Origin: Candidatus Jorgensenbacteria bacterium GW2011_GWB1_50_10
GTDB lineage: Bacteria > Patescibacteriota > Minisyncoccia > UBA6257 > GWB1-50-10
Length of the DNA stretch: 64,000 nucleotides
Assembly: GCA_001004105.1 (NCBI GenBank)
Contig: LCQK01000001.1
Location: 166,928-230,927 of the forward strand
Direction of reading: 5' to 3'
The notes under the pieces are model-generated. The model ran no database searches. It saw only the letters and a list, made by a program, of their open reading frames with translations, and had not been told where the DNA came from. Position 1 is the first letter of the stretch. The number at the start of each line of letters is the position of its first letter. Below, piece after piece: positions 4,631 to 60,931 of the stretch. A program made the position numbers and the translations under genes.

Positions 4631-4666
4631 CCAACCCGCCTCTCTTAAGGGGCGGGTTGCTGTTTG
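4631..4666 (+). terminator. Rho-independent terminator after nrdJ
   Basis: Stem CAACCCGCC / GGCGGGTTG (9 bp) with loop tctcttaag, followed by CTGTTTG. Confidence 0.55.
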
Positions 4667-4896
4667 CGGCCGTTGGGGATGAGACGGGCGAGAACTTCCT
4701 CTTCGGTTTCTGCTCTCCGCTCGCCGTTGCCGACGTCTCTTTTCCATCGGCAGACTTCCAGAGTGACGGTGAGATTGTACACGAACGATTTTTCTCCGTC
4801 CGCGGCGAGGTTTACCGCCGTAATCCAAGCGGGGTTGAGGCCGTAGAGGCAGATCCCTAACTCCTTCCGCTTTTCGGAGAGTTCAGTCGCGTCCAC
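4645..4896 (-). CDS. Hypothetical small protein (GC-rich islet), GTG start
   Basis: 83 aa ORF; GGGAGGG immediately upstream of GTG; weak motif similarity (NPxx..A..EV) to the N-terminal half of the 56507 orphan protein; opposite-strand ORF 4657..4860 is an alternative. Confidence 0.3.
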   Translation of the reverse strand: MDATELSEKRKELGICLYGLNPAWITAVNLAADGEKSFVYNLTVTLEVCRWKRDVGNGERRAETEEEVLARLIPNGRKQQPAP

Positions 4897-4968
4897 TTTC
4901 CCTCCCTGAGAGTTCTAATTTAATTATATTCCTCGCAGATTTGATTTTTTGAGGGAAAAGTGCATAAA

Positions 4969-5199
4969 CTACAGGTAGCCCCCATCTTGGAGGAATATAT
5001 GTTTCAGGGGATTATCGCCTTGCCGCCAGGAAGGACTCTGGATGACGTTCGGGAGTTGAAGCCCAACGAAGGCGAGTGGCGGCCGCTGCCTGGCCTCTTC
5101 TGCATCAGTGATAGCGAACCCGCCGTTGCTCACCCTAACACGGACGGTATCGTGGGGTGTCCGGCGTGTCTCGCTACAGAAGATTTCACCGACGGTCAC
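4969..5199 (-). CDS. Hypothetical small protein (GC-rich islet), GTG start; possible paralog of the downstream ORF
   Basis: 76 aa; GGGGAGGG upstream of GTG, same initiation signature as 4645..4896; C-terminal GDNPLKHIFLQDG resembles KYNPLLKAFLAYND of the 56507 protein; plus-strand ORF 4999..5250 (GGAGG-6-ATG) is an equally possible alternative in this GC-rich stretch. Confidence 0.25.
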   Translation of the reverse strand: MTVGEIFCSETRRTPHDTVRVRVSNGGFAITDAEEARQRPPLAFVGLQLPNVIQSPSWRQGDNPLKHIFLQDGGYL

Positions 5200-5262
5200 C
5201 GCCCTCCCCGGCGGTTCCGTCGTGCGCTCGTCGGTTCCGACAGCGAGTGACGGGCAACCGCA

Positions 5263-5309
5263 GAAGCGAAAACGGCTCCGAACATCAGTTCGGGGCCGCT
5301 TCGTTTTTC
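5263..5309. terminator. Imperfect hairpin with T-runs on both strands (bidirectional terminator between the GC-rich islet and the SWIB gene)
   Basis: GAAGCG...GGCTCCGAAC atca GTTCGGGGCC..CGCTTC then GTTTTTCC on plus; reverse reading gives the hairpin then TTTTCGCTTC. Confidence 0.45.
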
Positions 5310-5333
5310 CGGAAGAGATTTAGATAAAATATC

Positions 5334-5588
5334 CTAGGAAAGGTGTTTGGAAACGAGCTTTGTCATTTCAAACATGCTCACCGTTGCTTTGCCGCCAAAC
5401 ACTTTCTTAAGATTATCATCGGCGTTAATGTTGCGCTTGTTCATCGGGTCCTGGAGATTGTTCTTTTTGATGTATACCCAGAGCTTTTTAACGACCTCCG
5501 ACCTGGGCATGGGCCCCGAGCCGACCACAGCAGCCAGTTCCTCGCTGATATTCATCGGCCTCATAAACGCTGAATTAGATTTTGCCAT
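5334..5588 (-). CDS. SWIB/MDM2 domain protein
   Basis: 84 aa; LAAVVG..MPRSEVVKKLWVYIKKNNLQDP..KRNINADDNLKKVFG motif pattern typical of SWIB. Confidence 0.8.
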   Translation of the reverse strand: MAKSNSAFMRPMNISEELAAVVGSGPMPRSEVVKKLWVYIKKNNLQDPMNKRNINADDNLKKVFGGKATVSMFEMTKLVSKHLS

Positions 5589-5648
5589 ATGTTTTATTGA
5601 TTTTCGACAGCTTTATTATACCAAATTCCACTTAAACTTTCTATATGG

Positions 5649-5670
5649 GCTCCCCGGGCAGGGAATCGAA
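5649..5670 (-). repeat. Degenerate duplicate of the tRNA-Asn 3' end (T-loop half plus acceptor 3' strand), att-like direct repeat
   Basis: Minus-sense TTCGATTCCCTGCCCGGGGAGC vs the intact tRNA 3' end TTCGAATCCTGCCCGGGGAGC, about 108 bp apart; no complete cloverleaf can be folded for this copy. Confidence 0.5.
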
Positions 5671-5776
5671 CAAAATTTCGCCTTCGCGAAATTTTCTGAC
5701 ACCTTGCGGTTTCAGTACTTCTACCACGGGAAAACTCCCGTTTTCCCGACCCCTTTCCCGTTCGAATCCTACTCTG

Positions 5777-5848
5777 CTCCCCGGGCAGGATTCGAACCTG
5801 CGACCTTCGCTTTAACAGAGCGCCGCACTACCGCTGTGCTACCGGGGA
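5777..5848 (-). tRNA. tRNA-Asn (anticodon GTT)
   Basis: Minus-strand cloverleaf TCCCCGG TA GCAC AGCGGTA GTGC G GCGCT CTGTTAA AGCGA AGGTC GCAGG TTCGAAT CCTGC CCGGGGA G. Confidence 0.85.
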
Positions 5849-5999
5849 ATGTTGAAATTATTACACGATTTGTTAAGATACATCAAGCGATATGGACCGC
5901 AAAGAATTAATCAGGACAGTCTATCTTTATCTTTTCTCGCTGGGAGCGAAAGGAGAAAAACGCCTCGGCGTTTAGAATTCCTCAATTAAAAATAAATAT

Positions 6000-6073
6000 C
6001 CCCCTATAGCTCAGTCCGGTAGAGCAGCTCCCTTTTAAGGAGATGGTCCCAGGTTCAAATCCTGGTGGGGGGA
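6000..6073 (+). tRNA. tRNA-Lys (anticodon TTT)
   Basis: CCCCCTA TA GCTC AGTCCGGTA GAGC A GCTCC CTTTTAA GGAGA TGGTC CCAGG TTCAAAT CCTGG TGGGGGG A. Confidence 0.85.
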
Positions 6074-6103
6074 CAAGAGATTGGGGTATTTATTTTTGCC
6101 TCA

Positions 6104-6157
6104 CTGCCATCTGATAAGGAGATGGTCGTAGGTTCAAATCCTACACGGGGGACAAGA
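6104..6157 (+). pseudogene. Partial duplicate of the tRNA-Lys 3' half (anticodon-arm 3' side, T-arm, acceptor 3' strand) with compensatory T-stem changes
   Basis: TAAGGAGATGGTC-GTAGG-TTCAAATCC-TACAC-GGGGGACAAGA vs tRNA TAAGGAGATGGTC-CCAGG-TTCAAATCC-TGGTG-GGGGGACAAGA; no matching 5' acceptor strand. Confidence 0.5.
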
Positions 6158-6186
6158 TTTTTTAGAGGTGATATTATATAGAGGCT

Positions 6187-7614
6187 TTGAAAATACTCAA
6201 GAGCAAGAAAGTCATCATCGGTTTGATTGTCGTTGTTCTTGCGGTTTTTGTTTATTTCGTGAGCCGCGACAAAGGACCGCAGTACGAATACGCAGTCGCG
6301 GCGCGCGGCAACATCCTGCAGGAAGTAAGCGTCACCGGCCGCGTGAAGCCAGCGGAGGACGTGACGCTCGCTTTTGAAACAAGCGGCCGGGTGCGCTCCG
6401 TAAGCGTGAAGGTAGGTGATACGGTTTTTGCAGGGACGGTGCTCGTGCGACTGGATGCGGCTGAGCTTTCGGCCGAACTTGCCAAAGCCGAATCGGATTT
6501 GGCGACGCAGAGAGCAAAATTGGACGAAGCGAAAACAGCCCTCGGAAACGTTTACACAGGAGCGATAAATGATTTGAATAGTGCCTATCTTAAAGCCGAT
6601 GACGCGGTTCACGTGAAGATAACCTCGCTTTTTACAAGTTCCGGCCAGTCGGTTTATCAGCTCAGTTTCGACACCTGCGATTACGAGGCGAAAGTTAACG
6701 CCGGCGGTGAAAGGGCGGCGGCCGAAGAAGATTTGAAAAAATGGAAAAGCGAACTTGCGTTGTTGAACTCCGATTTATCGGAAACAGAGAGCGGCGAGTG
6801 GCTTAACGCCGGCCGGACCCACCTTAATCTAGTTAAAGGGCTTCTGGAAAATTTGAATAAAGCTCTGAATGCCGACTGCATTTTGAACCAATCATCGCTT
6901 GACACTTACCGGGCGAGTTTGAGCACGGCAAGGAGCAACGTTAATGATGCGCTTGTCGCGTTAAGCAATAAGGAACAAGCCATTCTTTCGCAGAAAGCTG
7001 CTGTCACCTCAGTCGAAGTGTCGGAGAAGAGCTACGAAGCTTCCGTTTCAACCATTAAAACCCAGCTTGCCAAAACCGTCCTTGTCTCGCCCATAAGAGG
7101 CACAATTTCTTCGGTGGAAGCGGAAGCTGGTGAGATTGTCGGCGCGAATGCCGCGGTTGCTTCCGTCATTTCCGCGGCGGAACTGGAAATCGAAGCCAAT
7201 ATCCCGGAGGTGGACGTGGCCAAAATCAAAGTCGGGGATGAGGCCAAAGTGACGCTCGACGCCTACGGAAGCGGCGTTGTTTTCCAAGCGATGGTTTTCC
7301 AAATTGACCCGGCCGAGAAAATCATTGAAGGAGTGCCGACCTATCGGACCAAACTGCAGTTTACGGAAAAAGACGAACGGATTAAATCCGGCATGACAGC
7401 GAATATTGATATTCTCGCGGCAGAGAAAGAAAACGTTATTTACGTCCCGGCGCGGGCGGTGGTGGGCGATGACAACCGGACTTTTGTGAGAATACTCGAG
7501 GGAAACATACCTAAAGAAGCTGATGTTCAAACCGGTTTGCGCGGTTCGGACGGCAACGTGGAGATAATTTCGGGCTTGAATGATGGAGATAAAGTAGTGA
7601 CTTTTGAGAAATAA
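6187..7614 (+). CDS. HlyD-family periplasmic adaptor (membrane fusion protein) of a MacAB-like efflux system
   Basis: 475 aa; N-terminal TM anchor, coiled-coil rich centre, C-terminal beta-barrel-like region; first gene of an adaptor/ABC/permease operon; the in-frame start appears to be TTG. Confidence 0.7.
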   Translation: MKILKSKKVIIGLIVVVLAVFVYFVSRDKGPQYEYAVAARGNILQEVSVTGRVKPAEDVTLAFETSGRVRSVSVKVGDTVFAGTVLVRLDAAELSAELAKAESDLATQRAKLDEAKTALGNVYTGAINDLNSAYLKADDAVHVKITSLFTSSGQSVYQLSFDTCDYEAKVNAGGERAAAEEDLKKWKSELALLNSDLSETESGEWLNAGRTHLNLVKGLLENLNKALNADCILNQSSLDTYRASLSTARSNVNDALVALSNKEQAILSQKAAVTSVEVSEKSYEASVSTIKTQLAKTVLVSPIRGTISSVEAEAGEIVGANAAVASVISAAELEIEANIPEVDVAKIKVGDEAKVTLDAYGSGVVFQAMVFQIDPAEKIIEGVPTYRTKLQFTEKDERIKSGMTANIDILAAEKENVIYVPARAVVGDDNRTFVRILEGNIPKEADVQTGLRGSDGNVEIISGLNDGDKVVTFEK

Positions 7615-54323: not shown

Positions 54324-56168
54324 ATGGCTAATTCCTCGGGAAACAGTAAAGACGTAGTTTACTTCGGCCGGACCGATTTTCGGGGCGAGAACCGGCTCTT
54401 CGGCGTGAAGCGCGCCGATCGGCGCCAGCACATGTATGTTATCGGCAAGACCGGCACCGGCAAGAGCGCGCTCCTGCACAATATGATCGTCCAAGATATT
54501 GCAAACGGCGAAGGCGTTTGCGTCGTTGACCCCCACGGCGAACTCGTTGAGGATATTCTCTCCAAAATTCCCGAGGAGCGGCTAGAGGATGTGATTTATC
54601 TTAATCCGGCCGACACCGAACATTACGTCGGCTTCAACGTGCTGGAGTTGCCGGACCCGAAATACAAACATCTGGTCGCCTCCGGCTTAATGGGAATTTT
54701 CACCAAAATCTGGGCGAATGTCTGGTCGGCGCGGATGGAGTACATCTTGAACAACGCCGTCCTCGCCCTACTGGACACGCCCAATTCCACGCTTTTGGGT
54801 ATTACCCGAATACTCGTTGATAAGGAGTACCGGCAGAAAATTATCGCCAATCTCAAGGACCCGGTGGTGAAGGCCTTTTGGGTTCACGAATACGAAGAAT
54901 GGCAGGATAAATTCCGTAACGAAGCCATCGCTCCCATTCAGAATAAAGTCGGCCAGTTCCTTTCAACCGCCCTCATTAGGAACATTGTGGGGCAGGCCAA
55001 AAGCACGATAGACATTTTTAAAATAATGAACGAGGGAAAAATTTTTATCGTAAATCTTTCTAAAGGCAGAATCGGCGAAGATAATTCTGCTCTCCTTGGA
55101 GCCATGATTATCACCAAAATCCAGCTCTCGGCCATGGAGCGCGTCCGCCTTCCCGAGGAGGAACGGGTGGATTTTTATCTCTATGTCGATGAGTTTCAGA
55201 ATTTCGCGACCGATTCCTTCGCGGGCATTTTGTCGGAGGCCCGCAAATACCGCCTCAATCTGATTTTGGCCCATCAGTACGTGGGCCAGCTCGTGACCGA
55301 AACTTCCACCCGGGTGCGGGATGCCGTTTTCGGCAACGTCGGGACAATGATTATTTTCCGGGTGGGGGCGGCTGATGCTGAATATCTGGAGCCGGAATTT
55401 ACGCCGGAATTCACGATTCAGGATATCGTCAATCTCCCGAACTACCACGTTTATTTGAAACTGATGGTAAACGGCGTGACAAGCCGCCCTTTTTCTTCCC
55501 GGACCCTGCCGCCGTTTAAGGTCCAAGCCTCGCCACTTATCAAGGAAAAAGTGATTGCTTCTTCCGTGAAGCGTTATGGCCGGCCGAGAGTGGTGGTGGA
55601 AGAAGAAATCAACCGCTGGAGCGGGATTATGGCCGGGGAAGGAGGCGCTCCCCCAAGCGGCAAGTATGAAGCGACTTGTTCCATTTGCGGCAAACCGGCG
55701 ATTGTGCCTTTCAAACCCGAGCCGGGCCGGCCGGTTTACTGCAGCGACTGTTTTGCCAAAATTGAGGCCGGCGAACTAAAGCCGCTCCCCGCCAAACTTT
55801 TTACCGGCAAACCTGAAAAGAGATATACAAGCGATTTATCGGCCTTAGGCATTGAATTTGAAGGGTCGCCAAAAAAAGAAACGATGGTGGGTGGGCTCGC
55901 CCGCAACGCTTCGCGTAGCGATGCGGGCGGGGGATTTCTAGAGAGAAGGAACCGGCCCGAAAGAAGAAGATATGAGCGCCCGAGGCAGGGTCCGCCACGG
56001 CCGCAATCCATTATCCGGGAAAGTTCGGTGCCGGAGGAGACCGAGAAGCCACTGGGGCTTAGTGAACTCACGCCTCAAGAGGAAAAAATCAAACCCGAAC
56101 GGAGTAAACCCGAGCCGGACGTGGCCGGTCTCCAAGAAGCGCTCCGAAAGGCGCTGGAGAATAAGTAG
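54324..56168 (+). CDS. VirD4/TraD-type (T4SS coupling protein-like) AAA ATPase with C-terminal zinc ribbon and RG-rich tail
   Basis: Walker A GKTGTGKS, VVDPHGE, Walker B YLYVDEFQNF; C-terminal CSICGK...VYCSDCF; no other T4SS genes in the window. Confidence 0.5.
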   Translation: MANSSGNSKDVVYFGRTDFRGENRLFGVKRADRRQHMYVIGKTGTGKSALLHNMIVQDIANGEGVCVVDPHGELVEDILSKIPEERLEDVIYLNPADTEHYVGFNVLELPDPKYKHLVASGLMGIFTKIWANVWSARMEYILNNAVLALLDTPNSTLLGITRILVDKEYRQKIIANLKDPVVKAFWVHEYEEWQDKFRNEAIAPIQNKVGQFLSTALIRNIVGQAKSTIDIFKIMNEGKIFIVNLSKGRIGEDNSALLGAMIITKIQLSAMERVRLPEEERVDFYLYVDEFQNFATDSFAGILSEARKYRLNLILAHQYVGQLVTETSTRVRDAVFGNVGTMIIFRVGAADAEYLEPEFTPEFTIQDIVNLPNYHVYLKLMVNGVTSRPFSSRTLPPFKVQASPLIKEKVIASSVKRYGRPRVVVEEEINRWSGIMAGEGGAPPSGKYEATCSICGKPAIVPFKPEPGRPVYCSDCFAKIEAGELKPLPAKLFTGKPEKRYTSDLSALGIEFEGSPKKETMVGGLARNASRSDAGGGFLERRNRPERRRYERPRQGPPRPQSIIRESSVPEETEKPLGLSELTPQEEKIKPERSKPEPDVAGLQEALRKALENK

Positions 56169-59494: not shown

Positions 59495-60931
59495 ATGTCT
59501 TCTTACGACATTTTCTTTTTTGTTGCGTTGTTTTTCTTAGCTGGAGTGTTTTTGTCGAGTATCGGAGGAGAGTTTTGGATATTAGTTTTGGTTGTCGCGG
59601 CGGGAGCCGCGTTTTTGTTTTGGGGCGTTTGGCGCAAAAACAGAAGATTTTTTTGGCTTGCCGGTCTGGTTTTTATCACTATCGTGGGCGCGCTTTATTA
59701 CACCGGGGATGATTTGAAATTCCAGGGAAGCGTCAATATTCATTTTGACGAGAAAATAACTTTTACCGGCGTCATTATTTCCAACCCAACCTTGAAAAGT
59801 GGCAGTCAAGAATTTAAATTGAAATTAAATCCGCCCTTTAGCGGCAATGTTTTAGTAAAAACCGCCCGCTATCCCGAGTTCAGTTATGGCGATGAAGTGC
59901 GGATTGAGGGAAAAATAGAGAGACCGTTTTCCGGAAGTTATGCTCAATATTTGAGTAAAGAAAAGATAAGCGGCGTCGTAACTTTTGCCGAGGCCGAAGA
60001 AATCTCAAGCGGCAAGGGAAGCAAAATAAAAGCGCTCCTTTTCGGCGTCAAAAATGCCGTGATTGGCTCGTTTCAGAATATTTTACCGGTGAAGGAGGCA
60101 GCCTTTGCTTCCGGCCTTACTTTGGGCGAGCGGGGAGAGTTTTCCGAAGAGTTTCGGGAAGCAATGTCAAAGAGCGGCACGACGCATTTGGTAGCGCTCT
60201 CCGGCTACAACATCACGATTATCGTCGGCGCCGTGACGGGGCTCTTTGTTTGGTTTCTCTCGCGCCGGGTTTCATTTATTCTCACTATCATTGTGGTTTT
60301 GGGTTTCGTGCTCATGACCGGCGCCGAGGCCTCGGTGGTACGGGCGGCGATTATGGGAATTTTAGTGATGCTCTCACGCGAAGTGGGGCGCTTGTTTGAT
60401 TTCCGGAACGCGATAATCTTGGCCGGACTCCTCATGGTTCTTCAAAATCCCAAAGTGCTCGCTTTTGACGCCGGTTTTCAATTGTCGTTTCTCGCGCTTC
60501 TCGGAATAATCTATCTTCGGCCGGCAGTCGTGAAATTTTTCCGGGTCAGTGACGACGAAGGGTTTTTGTCTTGGAAAGGCAACCTTTTGACCACCGCCTC
60601 AGCGCAATTTATGGTTGCGCCGCTTTTGATCTCCAGTTTCGGCAGTTTTTCGCTCACCTCGCTTGCCGCAAACGTCTTAATTTTGGAACTTGTCCCGCTC
60701 ACGATGTTTTTGGGTTTTCTTACCGCCTTTTTGGGTTTTTTCGCCAGTTACTTTGCTATGATCTCAGGGCTTATCGTTTCCGTGCTTCTCAAATTTGAGA
60801 TGTTTGTCATAGAACTCTTCGCTAAATTGAGTATTCCTTTCGGTTCGGGTGCCGGAAGTTTATTTTTCGTTTTCTATTACATGGTTCTTGTCGGTTTCAT
60901 AATTTATGTGGGAAAAATTAGCCGAGCATAA
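59495..60931 (+). CDS. comEC: ComEC/Rec2 competence protein, membrane channel part (DUF4131 plus competence domain)
   Basis: TTHLVALSGYNITII motif, 10+ TM. Confidence 0.8.
   Translation: MSSYDIFFFVALFFLAGVFLSSIGGEFWILVLVVAAGAAFLFWGVWRKNRRFFWLAGLVFITIVGALYYTGDDLKFQGSVNIHFDEKITFTGVIISNPTLKSGSQEFKLKLNPPFSGNVLVKTARYPEFSYGDEVRIEGKIERPFSGSYAQYLSKEKISGVVTFAEAEEISSGKGSKIKALLFGVKNAVIGSFQNILPVKEAAFASGLTLGERGEFSEEFREAMSKSGTTHLVALSGYNITIIVGAVTGLFVWFLSRRVSFILTIIVVLGFVLMTGAEASVVRAAIMGILVMLSREVGRLFDFRNAIILAGLLMVLQNPKVLAFDAGFQLSFLALLGIIYLRPAVVKFFRVSDDEGFLSWKGNLLTTASAQFMVAPLLISSFGSFSLTSLAANVLILELVPLTMFLGFLTAFLGFFASYFAMISGLIVSVLLKFEMFVIELFAKLSIPFGSGAGSLFFVFYYMVLVGFIIYVGKISRA

Follow-up and report, generated by a model that had tools for sequence, protein, structure and literature searches.

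A tRNA-Asn-linked segment as a probable member of an apparently undescribed family of protein-less insertions in Patescibacteria

An intact element of about 125 bases follows the tRNA-Asn gene of the window, that is, of the whole 64-kb stretch of DNA analysed here, which comes from a member of Ca. Jorgensenbacteria. This segment (5649–5775, minus strand) is probably an intact member of a compact, protein-less and apparently undescribed insertion family in Patescibacteria, and the probability is meant for the explanation as a whole, including the mechanism set out below. The family itself exists: its scaffold was found more than 80 times in metagenome and genome contigs of Patescibacteria, and its single-strand structure is specific to the tRNA-sense strand. 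By sequence comparison, both arms of the element are target-derived, many different tRNA and protein-gene ends hold near-identical scaffolds, and the copy downstream at a protein gene is a foreign or displaced coding allele. Some related genomes have the element and others lack it.

A full-text literature search that included sequence strings found no published description of the family. The window copy and six other copies had no match to a curated RNA family in Rfam 15 at E ≤ 1 to 10. Nor did permissive thresholds bring up a ribozyme, riboswitch, IS605-orfB/HEARO or tRNA-like element.

The tRNA-Asn gene and its downstream copy

ARAGORN and Rfam agreed with a sequence-only reading of this DNA on an intact minus-strand tRNA-Asn(GTT), which ends at 5777 in that reading and in Rfam and at 5776 in ARAGORN (Table 1). 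That reading had also placed a near-copy of the tRNA 3' end at 5649–5670, and the copy was found to be exact over 14 nt and to cover 23 nt with one indel. The exact direct repeat GCTCCCCGGGCAGG (family D14) is located at 5649–5662 and 5776–5789 with a spacing of 127, and has an E-value of 0.012 in a blastn-short search against the whole 64-kb window. When one indel was allowed, GCTCCCCGGGCAGG-GAATCGAAC at 5649–5671 aligned with GCTCCCCGGGCAGG-ATTCGAAC at 5776–5797, reaching through the T-loop, and a gapped alignment stretched the likeness between tRNA and copy back to GCGAAGG. The repeat begins in the T-loop of the tRNA, which is a classical crossover position for tRNA-targeting elements. Of the earlier attL/attR assignment, an insertion footprint at the tRNA 3' end holds as a reading of the direct repeat, while the integrase does not, as none was found in the scanned ORFs of the window. 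The gene-attached copy D1 is intact, and the downstream copy D2 is proposed to be a displaced or duplicated target end. Because D1 is intact, the tRNA-Asn remains functional.

Table 1. Features of the tRNA-Asn gene and the adjoining element in the window
Feature	Position	Strand	Evidence
tRNA-Asn(GTT), intact target gene	5777–5848	−	ARAGORN 5776–5848, gtt; Rfam RF00005, 68 bits
D1, gene-attached copy of the target segment (T-loop, T-stem 3' strand, acceptor 3' strand, discriminator)	5776–5797	−	direct repeat D14 and tRNA/downstream alignment
Spacer AGAGUA, 6 nt, from tRNA end to element	5770–5775	−	sequence
X' arm, AGGAUUCGAAC	5760–5770	−	reverse complement of own tRNA T-loop and T-stem 3' strand, 11/11
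Conserved scaffold core, match to covariance model R1	5687–5773	−	cmsearch 87.4 bits, E 1.4e-22
Hairpin 1, CGGGAAAAC-GGGA-GUUUUCCCG, invariant family-wide	5727–5748	−	alignment A2 and pair counts
Helix B with ACCGCAAGG loop	5695–5718	−	compensatory pair changes
Hairpin 3, AAAAUUUCGC-GAAG-GCGAAAUUUU, then GUU	5672–5695	−	sequence and predicted fold
D2, downstream copy of the target segment, GUUCGAUUCC-CUGCCCGGGGAGC	5649–5671	−	final 14 nt are the exact tRNA end

About 106 nt without an ORF separate the two repeat copies. Both hairpins described there before are present (AAAATTTCGC-CTTC-GCGAAATTTT at 5672–5695 and CGGGAAAAC-TCCC-GTTTTCCCG at 5727–5748), and the reported lack of a cloverleaf was borne out by ARAGORN and Rfam, which gave no tRNA between the copies (E ≤ 10). 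The same two programs found no second or intron-containing tRNA in 5300–6400 (Rfam E ≤ 10), and a second, split or intron tRNA at 5600–5776 was thereby ruled out. The interval had been taken for a decayed islet, a view that has to be abandoned, as these ~106 nt form an intact structured element that scores 87.4 bits. Primer-binding-site-type complementarity containing CCA was considered as well and is unsupported; the copies have no CCA after them.

More distant copies of the 22-mer, which could have bounded a larger island, were absent from the window, as was any third copy of the 14-nt repeat. The region 4660–5330 had been described as GC-rich with only orphan ORFs and had been tied to the insertion. 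It is GC-rich (0.557 vs a window mean of 0.494; z = 2.0, 98.9th percentile) and holds at least one ORFan, ORF 4960–5250, which had no Pfam match and only 2 matching clusters among 5.8 billion proteins. The tie to the insertion was not upheld: the region lies outside both repeats, and nothing found here ties it to them, as no further repeat copy bounds it.

The scaffold and its flanking arms

The covariance model R1 was built from 49 copies, and its sole strong cmsearch match in the 64-kb window is the scaffold core. A metagenome scan with a 22-base motif returned more than 120 stretches. The family scaffold consists of an invariant hairpin, GGGAAAAC-N4-GUUUUCCC, a covarying helix of the pseudoknot type and a variable third hairpin. 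Hairpin 1 is paired in 99% of cells of alignment A2 without any variation. In helix B, both sides have changed in 5 of the 8 pairs, with 47 compensatory cells vs 16.6 in shuffles, and none of 500 shuffles reached the observed score. G-U pairs settle the strand of the structure as tRNA-sense. Through CCG in its ACCGCAAGG loop, helix B could pair with an upstream GG(N)GG, which would form an H-type pseudoknot, and these candidate pairs are invariant. The structure could in principle be that of single-stranded DNA instead of RNA.

Hairpin 3 of the window type also occurs in five other copies (L091, L102, L105, L110 and L167). In this subfamily it has a terminator-like look (A-tract, stem, U-tract); the terminator scan did not flag it.

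A homologous core was found behind other tRNAs, such as those for Pro and Arg at L014 and for Gly at L039, and each copy closes with the 3'-end copy of its own tRNA. The two copies at L014 lie on one contig and have near-identical scaffold cores with different arms. The window scaffold and that of L105, which is located at a GTPase gene, are 98.6% identical over 70 nt. Between L091 and L110 the scaffold is extremely conserved, whereas the adjacent 2.8 kb, probably an rRNA operon, is just 80% identical.

The layout of the family is a gene end (D1), 0–60 nt, the start of D in reverse complement, the scaffold and D2. The 5' arm of the cassette is the reverse complement of the first 8–20 nt of D, the scaffold measures 75–130 nt, and the 3' part is a direct copy of D. 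For the window copy this gene is tRNA-Asn, with D extending from its T-loop as far as its 3' end. An inverted repeat (score ≥9) was detected in 51 of 68 copies vs 1 of 68 controls, and a direct repeat in 47 of 68 copies vs 2 of 68 controls. The 5' arm is complementary to the T-arm of the upstream tRNA over up to the full 14-nt span tested, and it follows unusual T-loops, for example GTCCGATTCC at L143.

Among 86 copies, 55 are located 12–140 nt after a same-strand tRNA, and these tRNAs belong to 32 anticodon classes. An exact 12-nt copy of the tRNA end was present in 38 of the 55 tRNA-linked copies, and a copy with at most 2 mismatches in 43. The target duplication varies in length from 13 to 66 nt; the longest exact direct repeats have 66 nt, and several continue past the terminator of the tRNA. 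At tRNAs, D stops on its outer side where the terminator U-tract ends (L122, L124, L127, L141), and at N-terminal targets it stops exactly at the start codon (L105, L121, L132, L135, L137). A few copies have no recognisable direct repeat or lie directly upstream of a complete tRNA (L115, L150, L162).

The window element is probably co-transcribed with tRNA-Asn, because the 6-nt spacer is too short for a separate promoter; the promoter-like sites that were predicted all lie away from this spacer. In the predicted fold of such a co-transcript (−89 kcal/mol, z = −5.0), the T-arm pairs with X' and the 5' acceptor strand pairs with D2.

Copies at protein genes and in related genomes

The same architecture was found at the N-terminal ends of genes for EF-G/TypA-type GTPases, L11 and a GH57-like protein, and at the C-terminal ends of genes for an S21-like protein, UvrC and PBP2. 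The cassette is in sense orientation after 3' ends and in antisense orientation before 5' ends. At the EF-G gene (L121) and the GH57-like gene (L137), D2 retains the start codon and the reading frame, and its differences from D1 are almost all synonymous. At L132, D2 also shows amino-acid changes relative to D1. The D2 of protein genes is thus a gene end that has diverged while staying in frame, with mostly synonymous differences, which implies mobility as DNA in which the gene end is replaced.

Uninterrupted tRNA-Asn genes were found in six relatives (L004, L010, L013, L021, L026 and L030), in which the site is empty, and a decayed copy is left in L003. The interval between NrdJ and tRNA-Asn also differs between relatives. 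All 10 of 10 contigs with an identical SWIB protein were at least 99.7% identical and carried the element, so that no pair of empty and filled alleles was seen at strain level at the window locus; the exact insertion boundaries and recent mobility are therefore putative. Four independent assemblies of the window population break within the conserved core, which is expected because it is a multi-copy repeat. The copies are solitary, without an array, and the 64-kb window has one. Regarding a phage or plasmid origin, an 18-mer had 0 matches in IMG/VR, and INPHARED and PLSDB gave no blastn match.

Mechanism, alternatives and known systems

We propose that the element would be a non-autonomous mobile element that is co-transcribed with its target or transcribed beside it and that may spread between genomes as DNA. 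In naturally competent hosts, the conserved gene body and the carried copy of the gene end could act as two homology arms. Natural transformation has been demonstrated in Patescibacteria (PMC10633639), and ComEA and ComEC are encoded in the window. New sites would be set by the arms, not by a site-specific protein, and the machinery (a recombinase, nuclease or reverse transcriptase) would be encoded elsewhere. The target-derived arms suggest programmable targeting by such factors, aided by natural transformation. It is conceivable, but we would not expect it, that the cassette encodes a new kind of natural guide RNA that can be programmed, in which a pseudoknotted scaffold would carry a 5' antisense arm and a 3' sense arm that pair with both DNA strands, so that a recombinase, nuclease or reverse transcriptase encoded elsewhere could insert or home the protein-less element at conserved gene ends. 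If the terminator-like hairpin 3 acts before D2, it would leave D2 outside the RNA, which counts against a 3' guide role in the window copy.

The extreme scaffold conservation in distant hosts (L091 vs L110) would also suit a structured RNA that benefits the host, namely a cis-acting module under selection that spreads just occasionally. Such a module might serve to form 3' ends, to stabilise or insulate the transcript next to it, or as a switch in competition with the 3' strand of the tRNA. This alternative is unlikely, though probable co-transcription across the 6-nt spacer, the predicted co-transcript fold and the terminator-like hairpin 3 of the window subfamily all speak for it. A single RNA-level role does not fit all cases because the cassette stands in sense after 3' ends and in antisense before 5' ends of protein genes; the foreign-coding-allele signature of D2 at these genes and the patchy presence in close relatives point away from it as well. 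Somewhat less likely still is a retro-copy, in which reverse-transcribed scaffold RNA was joined or template-switched onto the terminal segment of a cellular RNA and then fixed by recombination. Snap-back extension of a scaffold-plus-D cDNA would give exactly the order reverse complement of the D start, scaffold and D, and on its outer side D stops where the transcript ends at tRNAs, and at the start codon at N-terminal targets. These boundaries, however, are equally explained by the limit of conservation between donor and recipient, no reverse transcriptase was found near the copies examined, and neither poly(A) nor other hallmarks of retro-elements are present.

Very improbable, and largely refuted, is the interpretation of the repeats as attL/attR of an almost fully decayed tyrosine-integrase island at tRNA-Asn with 4660–5330 as its remnant. 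The repeats enclose just 106 nt, which are an intact conserved element with more than 80 occurrences elsewhere; the scanned window ORFs gave no integrase, and none recurred consistently near other copies; and the ORFan region lies outside the repeats without a third repeat copy. One tRNA-specific integrase is inadequate because the single scaffold stands at 32 anticodon classes and at protein-gene ends. What this interpretation does accommodate is the block from T-loop to 3' end, which is typical of the identity blocks of tRNA-targeting integrases, together with the GC-rich composition (z = 2.0) and at least one ORFan gene of 4660–5330 and the variable NrdJ/tRNA-Asn interval in relatives. A decayed tandem duplicate of tRNA-Asn, that is, a pseudo-tRNA, is hardly credible and is refuted by the family alignment: although the gapped likeness extends back to GCGAAGG in the anticodon-stem/variable region, the sequence between the copies has its homologues in elements that follow unrelated tRNAs and protein genes, and not in tRNA-Asn, and neither ARAGORN nor Rfam finds a tRNA there.

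As in tRNA-targeting integrative elements and CIMEs, their protein-less, att-flanked and cis-mobilisable derivatives, the repeat extends from the T-loop to the tRNA 3' end, and a carried or duplicated end leaves the target gene intact; those elements also use conserved protein-gene ends, and their gene-end copies may be different alleles. Compared with an att site, the 3' part of the tRNA is present as a direct repeat, integrase and cargo are absent between the repeats, and 32 anticodon classes plus protein genes take the place of a single target or a few related ones. Unlike integrative elements, the window family has no nearby integrase and a whole insert of only about 100–200 nt. Its conserved part is a covarying single-strand structure rather than protein-binding arm sites, and one scaffold serves dozens of targets, with an inverted copy of the target start at the 5' edge.

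The OMEGA systems (TnpB omega-RNA/reRNA of IS200/IS605, and ORF-less derivatives) also have a pseudoknot scaffold followed by a 3' stretch identical to flanking or target DNA, and recombination homing would co-convert flanks. In contrast, the window family has no adjacent tnpB or tnpA and no Rfam match to IS605-orfB or HEARO, duplicates 13–66 nt of its target where IS200/IS605 makes no duplication, has an extra 5' arm antisense to the target and, in the window copy, places a terminator-like hairpin ahead of the 'guide'. A TnpB-style target-adjacent motif was rejected by eye, as the bases ahead of D differ among seven targets.

The guide of the TIGR-Tas tigRNA reads both DNA strands of its target (PMC12045711). 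Similar to this tigRNA and to the IS110/IS1111 bridge RNA or seekRNA, two target-derived segments of opposite polarity could pair with both strands of one site; in the window family, arms of opposite polarity exist and may pair with DNA. The guides of those systems are internal-loop segments of 4–10 nt or 36-nt array units, whereas the arms of the window family are terminal and 8–66 nt long. Those guides are encoded beside a DEDD recombinase or a Nop-domain Tas protein, whereas the window family has neither such a neighbour nor an array; the systems leave just a 2-nt core repeat or none, in contrast to its duplication of 13–66 nt. In type V-K CASTs, the homing crRNA carries a guide copied from a tRNA gene and is part of a mobile element that has inserted a short way beyond that tRNA. 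Those elements exceed 10 kb and have Cas12k and Tns genes and a fixed insertion distance, and nothing comparable was found at the window element. MITEs are likewise small, have no ORF, occur in several copies per genome and break assemblies at the repeat, but they have constant terminal inverted repeats and a short duplication of fixed length, whereas in the window family each target supplies the sequence of the arms, and duplications are anywhere from 13 to 66 nt long.

If the proposed explanation is true, Patescibacteria harbour a widespread mobile or functional RNA element of ~100 nt that needs no gene of its own, lands precisely at tRNA and essential protein-gene ends without inactivating them, and bears the address of its target in two oppositely oriented flanking arms. 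It would be a new way in which selfish DNA can survive in very small genomes, and it might point to an RNA-guided activity in DNA targeting or recombination that has gone unrecognised. The guide-RNA idea, if true, would mean a guide-only mobile element with its specificity written in its own flanks. The element breaks contigs and leaves tRNA-fragment "pseudo-att" sites as well as decoy gene starts and ends, which annotation pipelines and island finders can misread; the earlier reading of this window is an example.

Pfam searches of the scanned window ORFs gave only housekeeping genes, without an integrase or other recombinase. No recurrent recombinase was found by Pfam in 123 ORFs within 2.8 kb of 80 copies, and a cis-encoded effector was rejected, as these ORFs and 10 selected neighbours were host housekeeping genes only. 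Transposase, reverse transcriptase, tnpB/iscB, DEDD or Nop-domain neighbours were absent near the copies examined. Nor was there an autonomous form, in which an ORF would stand between D1 and the scaffold: recognisable first copies lay within ~130 nt of the scaffold. At L164 the motif follows a 353-aa ORF, which encodes an ATP-grasp-type protein and not a nuclease or transposase. This locus also carries a longer RNA-like sequence.

A conserved element behind tRNA-Asn

In the window, tRNA-Asn(gtt) was called at 5776-5848 (-) by ARAGORN and at 5777-5848 by the Rfam tRNA model (68 bits). The repeat finder returned an exact 14-nt direct repeat, GCTCCCCGGGCAGG, at 5649-5662 and 5776-5789 (blastn-short E of 0.012 against the whole window), and the similarity extends through the T-loop with one indel over the segments listed as D1 and D2 in the table. 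The sequence-only reading had described this duplicated end, and as an observation it was confirmed as a whole: the two hairpins it named were both found between the copies, and no tRNA was called in 5600-5776 by ARAGORN or by Rfam at E ≤ 10, in agreement with the reported lack of a cloverleaf. Uninterrupted tRNA-Asn loci, which it proposed to look for, are present in L004, L010, L013, L021, L026 and L030 (L numbers denote loci or contigs from other Patescibacteria genomes and metagenomes). Distant copies that would bound a larger island were also sought, and no further copy of the tRNA-Asn end occurs within the 64-kb window. Of its interpretation, a decayed integrase islet, the insertion footprint at the tRNA T-loop stands; what was inserted, and how, had to be revised.

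Features of the tRNA-Asn locus and the GC-rich region in the window
Feature	Position	Strand	Remarks
D1, gene-attached copy of the target segment	5776-5797
Spacer	5770-5775
X', 5' arm	5760-5770
Scaffold	5672-5759
D2, downstream copy of the target segment	5649-5671
Small ORF	4645-4896	(-)	no Pfam match
Small ORF, ORFan	4960-5250	(+)	no Pfam match; known solely from this population

The region 4660-5330, which had been included in the islet, is moderately GC-rich as described (0.557 vs 0.494, z = 2.0). Its two divergent small ORFs are located in the interval from the reductase terminator to the SWIB gene. They had been called orphans; both lack a Pfam match, and one is a true ORFan, annotated in Ca. 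Jorgensenbacteria GW2011_GWC1. The region is situated outside the repeats, lacks a recombinase and is not bounded by any repeat; there is thus nothing to connect it with them. The reductase-to-tRNA-Asn interval varies among relatives. A 16-nt inverted repeat (4925-4940 / 4984-4999) is located in the upstream region common to both ORFs.

The window ORFs scanned were chromosomal genes (NrdJ, ABC exporter, ParB, RelA/SpoT, GroEL, DnaG, RpoD, AlaRS, MurA, MreB, RseP, ComEA, ComEC), with no integrase or transposase among them. A VirD4/TraG-type coupling-protein homologue and ComEC are close together (54324-56168 and 59495-60931) and, with ComEA at 597-1712, represent DNA-uptake and transfer machinery in the genome.

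Spread and structure of the family

With the neighbouring class II ribonucleotide reductase as query, 80 Patescibacteria loci were collected, and the last 15 nt of each tRNA were searched for up to 400 nt downstream. Downstream end copies with at most two mismatches were found for 6 of 127 tRNAs: window Asn, L003 Asn, L014 Arg, L014 Pro, L034 Phe and L039 Gly. The window spacer was homologous to those behind L014 tRNA-Arg, L014 tRNA-Pro and L039 tRNA-Gly, with the common core GGAATCGAAC-GGGAAAGGGGTC-GGGAAAAC-N4-GTTTTCCC-...-GCGGAAGT.TTGAAACCGC.GGGTTTCAA..., and each of these spacers terminated in a copy of its own tRNA 3' end. By this comparison, the sequence between the two copies in the window is a conserved element and not the decayed DNA previously proposed. 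It is a member of a family with a clear, quantitatively supported architecture, for which no published description was found in the full-text literature, motif string included. At L034 (5529-5700), an exact 16-nt copy of the tRNA-Phe 3' end lies 78 nt downstream behind a spacer unlike the scaffold, and this repeat may represent a different insertion family or a scar.

A 22-base gapped motif matched at least 120 metagenome stretches, 80 of which were retrieved, while an 18-mer of the core had no match in IMG/VR viral contigs and nothing similar was found in phage and plasmid collections. In total, 86 copies were counted, including the window, two in L014 and one in L039. Fifty-five lie 12-140 nt after a same-strand tRNA (32 anticodon classes, 16 amino acids); an exact copy of the last 12 nt of the tRNA follows the scaffold in 38 of these, and a copy with at most two mismatches in 43. 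Several copies without an ARAGORN call are also behind tRNAs, truncated by contig ends. The remaining copies are at protein-gene ends, either antisense before the N-termini of EF-G/TypA-type GTPases (L105, L121, L132), L11 (L135) and a GH57-like protein (L137), or sense behind the C-termini of an S21-like protein (L131, L140, L154), UvrC (L146, L147) and PBP2 (L139). Pfam searches returned host genes only, both for 123 ORFs located up to 2.8 kb from 80 copies and for 10 chosen neighbours. Neither a version with an intervening ORF after D1 and ahead of the scaffold nor a conserved motif before the targets was seen.

Some loci differed in arrangement. In L115 (263-349), L150 (4323-4409) and L162 (6109-6195), the scaffold is immediately followed by a complete tRNA (Ala, Met and Arg, respectively), with no upstream gene-end repeat or matching 5' arm seen, which places them outside the general formula given below. 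At L164 (3710-3736, -), the hairpin-1 motif occurs about 30 nt behind a 353-aa ATP-grasp-type ORF; the sequence after it is different and longer, GC-rich, and matched by no Rfam family. In L091 (2778-3188) and L110 (5299-5704), the element follows the tRNA-Ala of a tRNA-Ile/tRNA-Ala pair, probably an rRNA operon spacer; tRNAs and element are 87.5% identical and lie inverted with respect to the adjacent 2.8 kb, where identity is only 80%.

The alignment of 49 cores (A2) contains an invariant hairpin, CGGGAAAAC-N4-GUUUUCCCG. In the second helix, five of eight pairs change on both sides, with 47 compensatory cells compared with 16.6 in shuffles (0/500), a count exceeding every slid register. Its loop carries an invariant CCG able to pair with an upstream GG; these pairs, which never vary, would give a candidate H-type pseudoknot. 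G-U pairs are frequent (for example, 26 U-G vs 13 U-A at one position), and the structure therefore belongs to the tRNA-sense strand. The third hairpin differs in length and sequence between copies, some of which lack it. The covariance model R1 scored the window copy at 87.4 bits (E of 1.4e-22), detected no second copy in the window, and identified five strong copies when run on the reductase-linked loci (898 kb). At permissive thresholds, Rfam 15 gave no family match for the window copy or for six others.

Flanking arms and evidence for DNA mobility

The scaffold is directly preceded by an arm of about 14 nt, which repeats the T-loop and T-stem 3' strand of the upstream tRNA as their reverse complement. 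The longest perfectly complementary run averaged 9.6 nt and reached all 14 nt examined. This arm tracks unusual T-loops (L143, GTCCGATTCC) and in 37 of 43 cases its fit to the gene-attached copy is closer than that to the downstream one. Among 68 copies with sufficient flank, inverted repeat scores of at least 9 were obtained for 51 copies vs 1 control, and direct repeat scores of at least 12 for 47 copies vs 2 controls. The general formula is gene...D1 - 0-60 nt - revcomp(D[0:n], n = 8-20) - scaffold - D2, where D is the target segment; in L166, L163 and L139, the 5' arm is the reverse complement of the entire D. At N-terminal targets, the outer end of D is exactly the start codon. Long direct repeats continue through the tRNA terminator (66 nt exact in L130; about 53-60 nt with few mismatches in L122, L124 and L127), and these copies look recent.

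At the EF-G gene of L121, D1 and D2 encode an identical stretch of 18 residues, with about 11 synonymous differences between them; at the GH57-like gene of L137, the two differ by five synonymous changes and R->K; and the D2 of L132, although diverged, reads in frame as an EF-G N-terminus and has its own ATG. D2 copies of this kind must have been shaped as functional gene ends of another genome or allele, and are therefore not local duplications that drifted. L014 carries two copies with a near-identical scaffold core and different arms on one contig, and between the window scaffold and that at the GTPase gene of L105, identity is 98.6% over 70 nt. Occupancy of an Arg/Pro/Gly tRNA cluster differs among L014, L033, L034 and L039. 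At L003 tRNA-Asn, only an arm remnant, the last scaffold bases (GCGTGAGA) and D2 are left, which resembles a decayed copy that has lost an internal part. The element is also carried by ten contigs of this population from other assemblies (at least 99.7% identity); four of these, from independent assemblies, stop at 5718-5741 inside the conserved core. Such breaks are expected of assemblers at a multi-copy repeat, which suggests further near-identical copies elsewhere in this genome.

Possible mechanisms and the adjacent tRNA-Lys

Promoter-like sites were located at 5886-5857 for tRNA-Asn and next at 5643-5615 for the SWIB gene. Because the 6-nt spacer is too short for a promoter, the window copy and tRNA-Asn probably share a transcript. 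The element alone has a predicted fold of -50.6 kcal/mol (z = -3.8). For tRNA plus element, the preferred predicted fold (-89 kcal/mol, z = -5.0) pairs X' with the T-arm, and D2 displaces the tRNA's own 3' strand; such predicted refolding is a potential, not a function.

One cassette occurs at sense 3' ends and antisense 5' ends, and DNA is therefore the common denominator. Patescibacteria are naturally transformable and their com genes are conserved (PMC10633639). A fragment consisting of gene body, D1, element and D2 could enter by transformation, with D2 as its own right-hand homology arm, and could integrate in any species in which the gene end is conserved. Such exchange would account both for the differing alleles and for the end of similarity at start codons and tRNA ends. 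The two arms of opposite polarity could also pair with the two strands of one site. IS110 bridge RNAs follow the same two-strand targeting logic. It has likewise been demonstrated for TIGR-Tas guides (PMC12045711). The analogy suggests programmable targeting by a factor encoded elsewhere. Hairpin 3 of the window copy is an A-tract/stem/U-tract, so its RNA may terminate before D2, which counts against a 3' guide role in this copy. Alternatively, a cDNA of scaffold and D could snap back on itself, which would give exactly revcomp(D start)-scaffold-D.

The reductase/tRNA-Asn/tRNA-Lys neighbourhood is kept across relatives, and tRNA order and orientation differ between the window and L002, L003, L004, L018 and L030, which points to repeated rearrangement at these tRNA genes. 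In the window, a 43-nt copy of the 3' half of a tRNA-Lys, from the anticodon loop on, lies at 6115-6157 behind tRNA-Lys(TTT) (6000-6074, +). This half has a compensatory T-stem difference (CCAGG/CCTGG vs GTAGG/CCTAC) and matches the L003 orthologue, not the window's own tRNA-Lys. L004 (8482-8731) contains a homologous 3' half, with the matching 5' half 174 nt upstream; once joined, the halves give a valid tRNA-Lys(TTT), whose anticodon loop is interrupted by the 174-nt insert, and this insert holds a complete second tRNA-Lys. By its sequence, L004 thus has a tRNA gene nested within a tRNA gene, of which the window retains only the inner gene and the outer 3' half. The tRNA-Lys leader plus first bases, AAAAATAAATATCCC, and the trailer, GGGGTATTTATTTTT, form a 15-nt inverted repeat (5988-6002 / 6083-6097), conserved in L004 as AAAAATAAATCC / GGATTTATTTT, which could keep the two parts of the interrupted outer tRNA in contact once the inner one has been excised.
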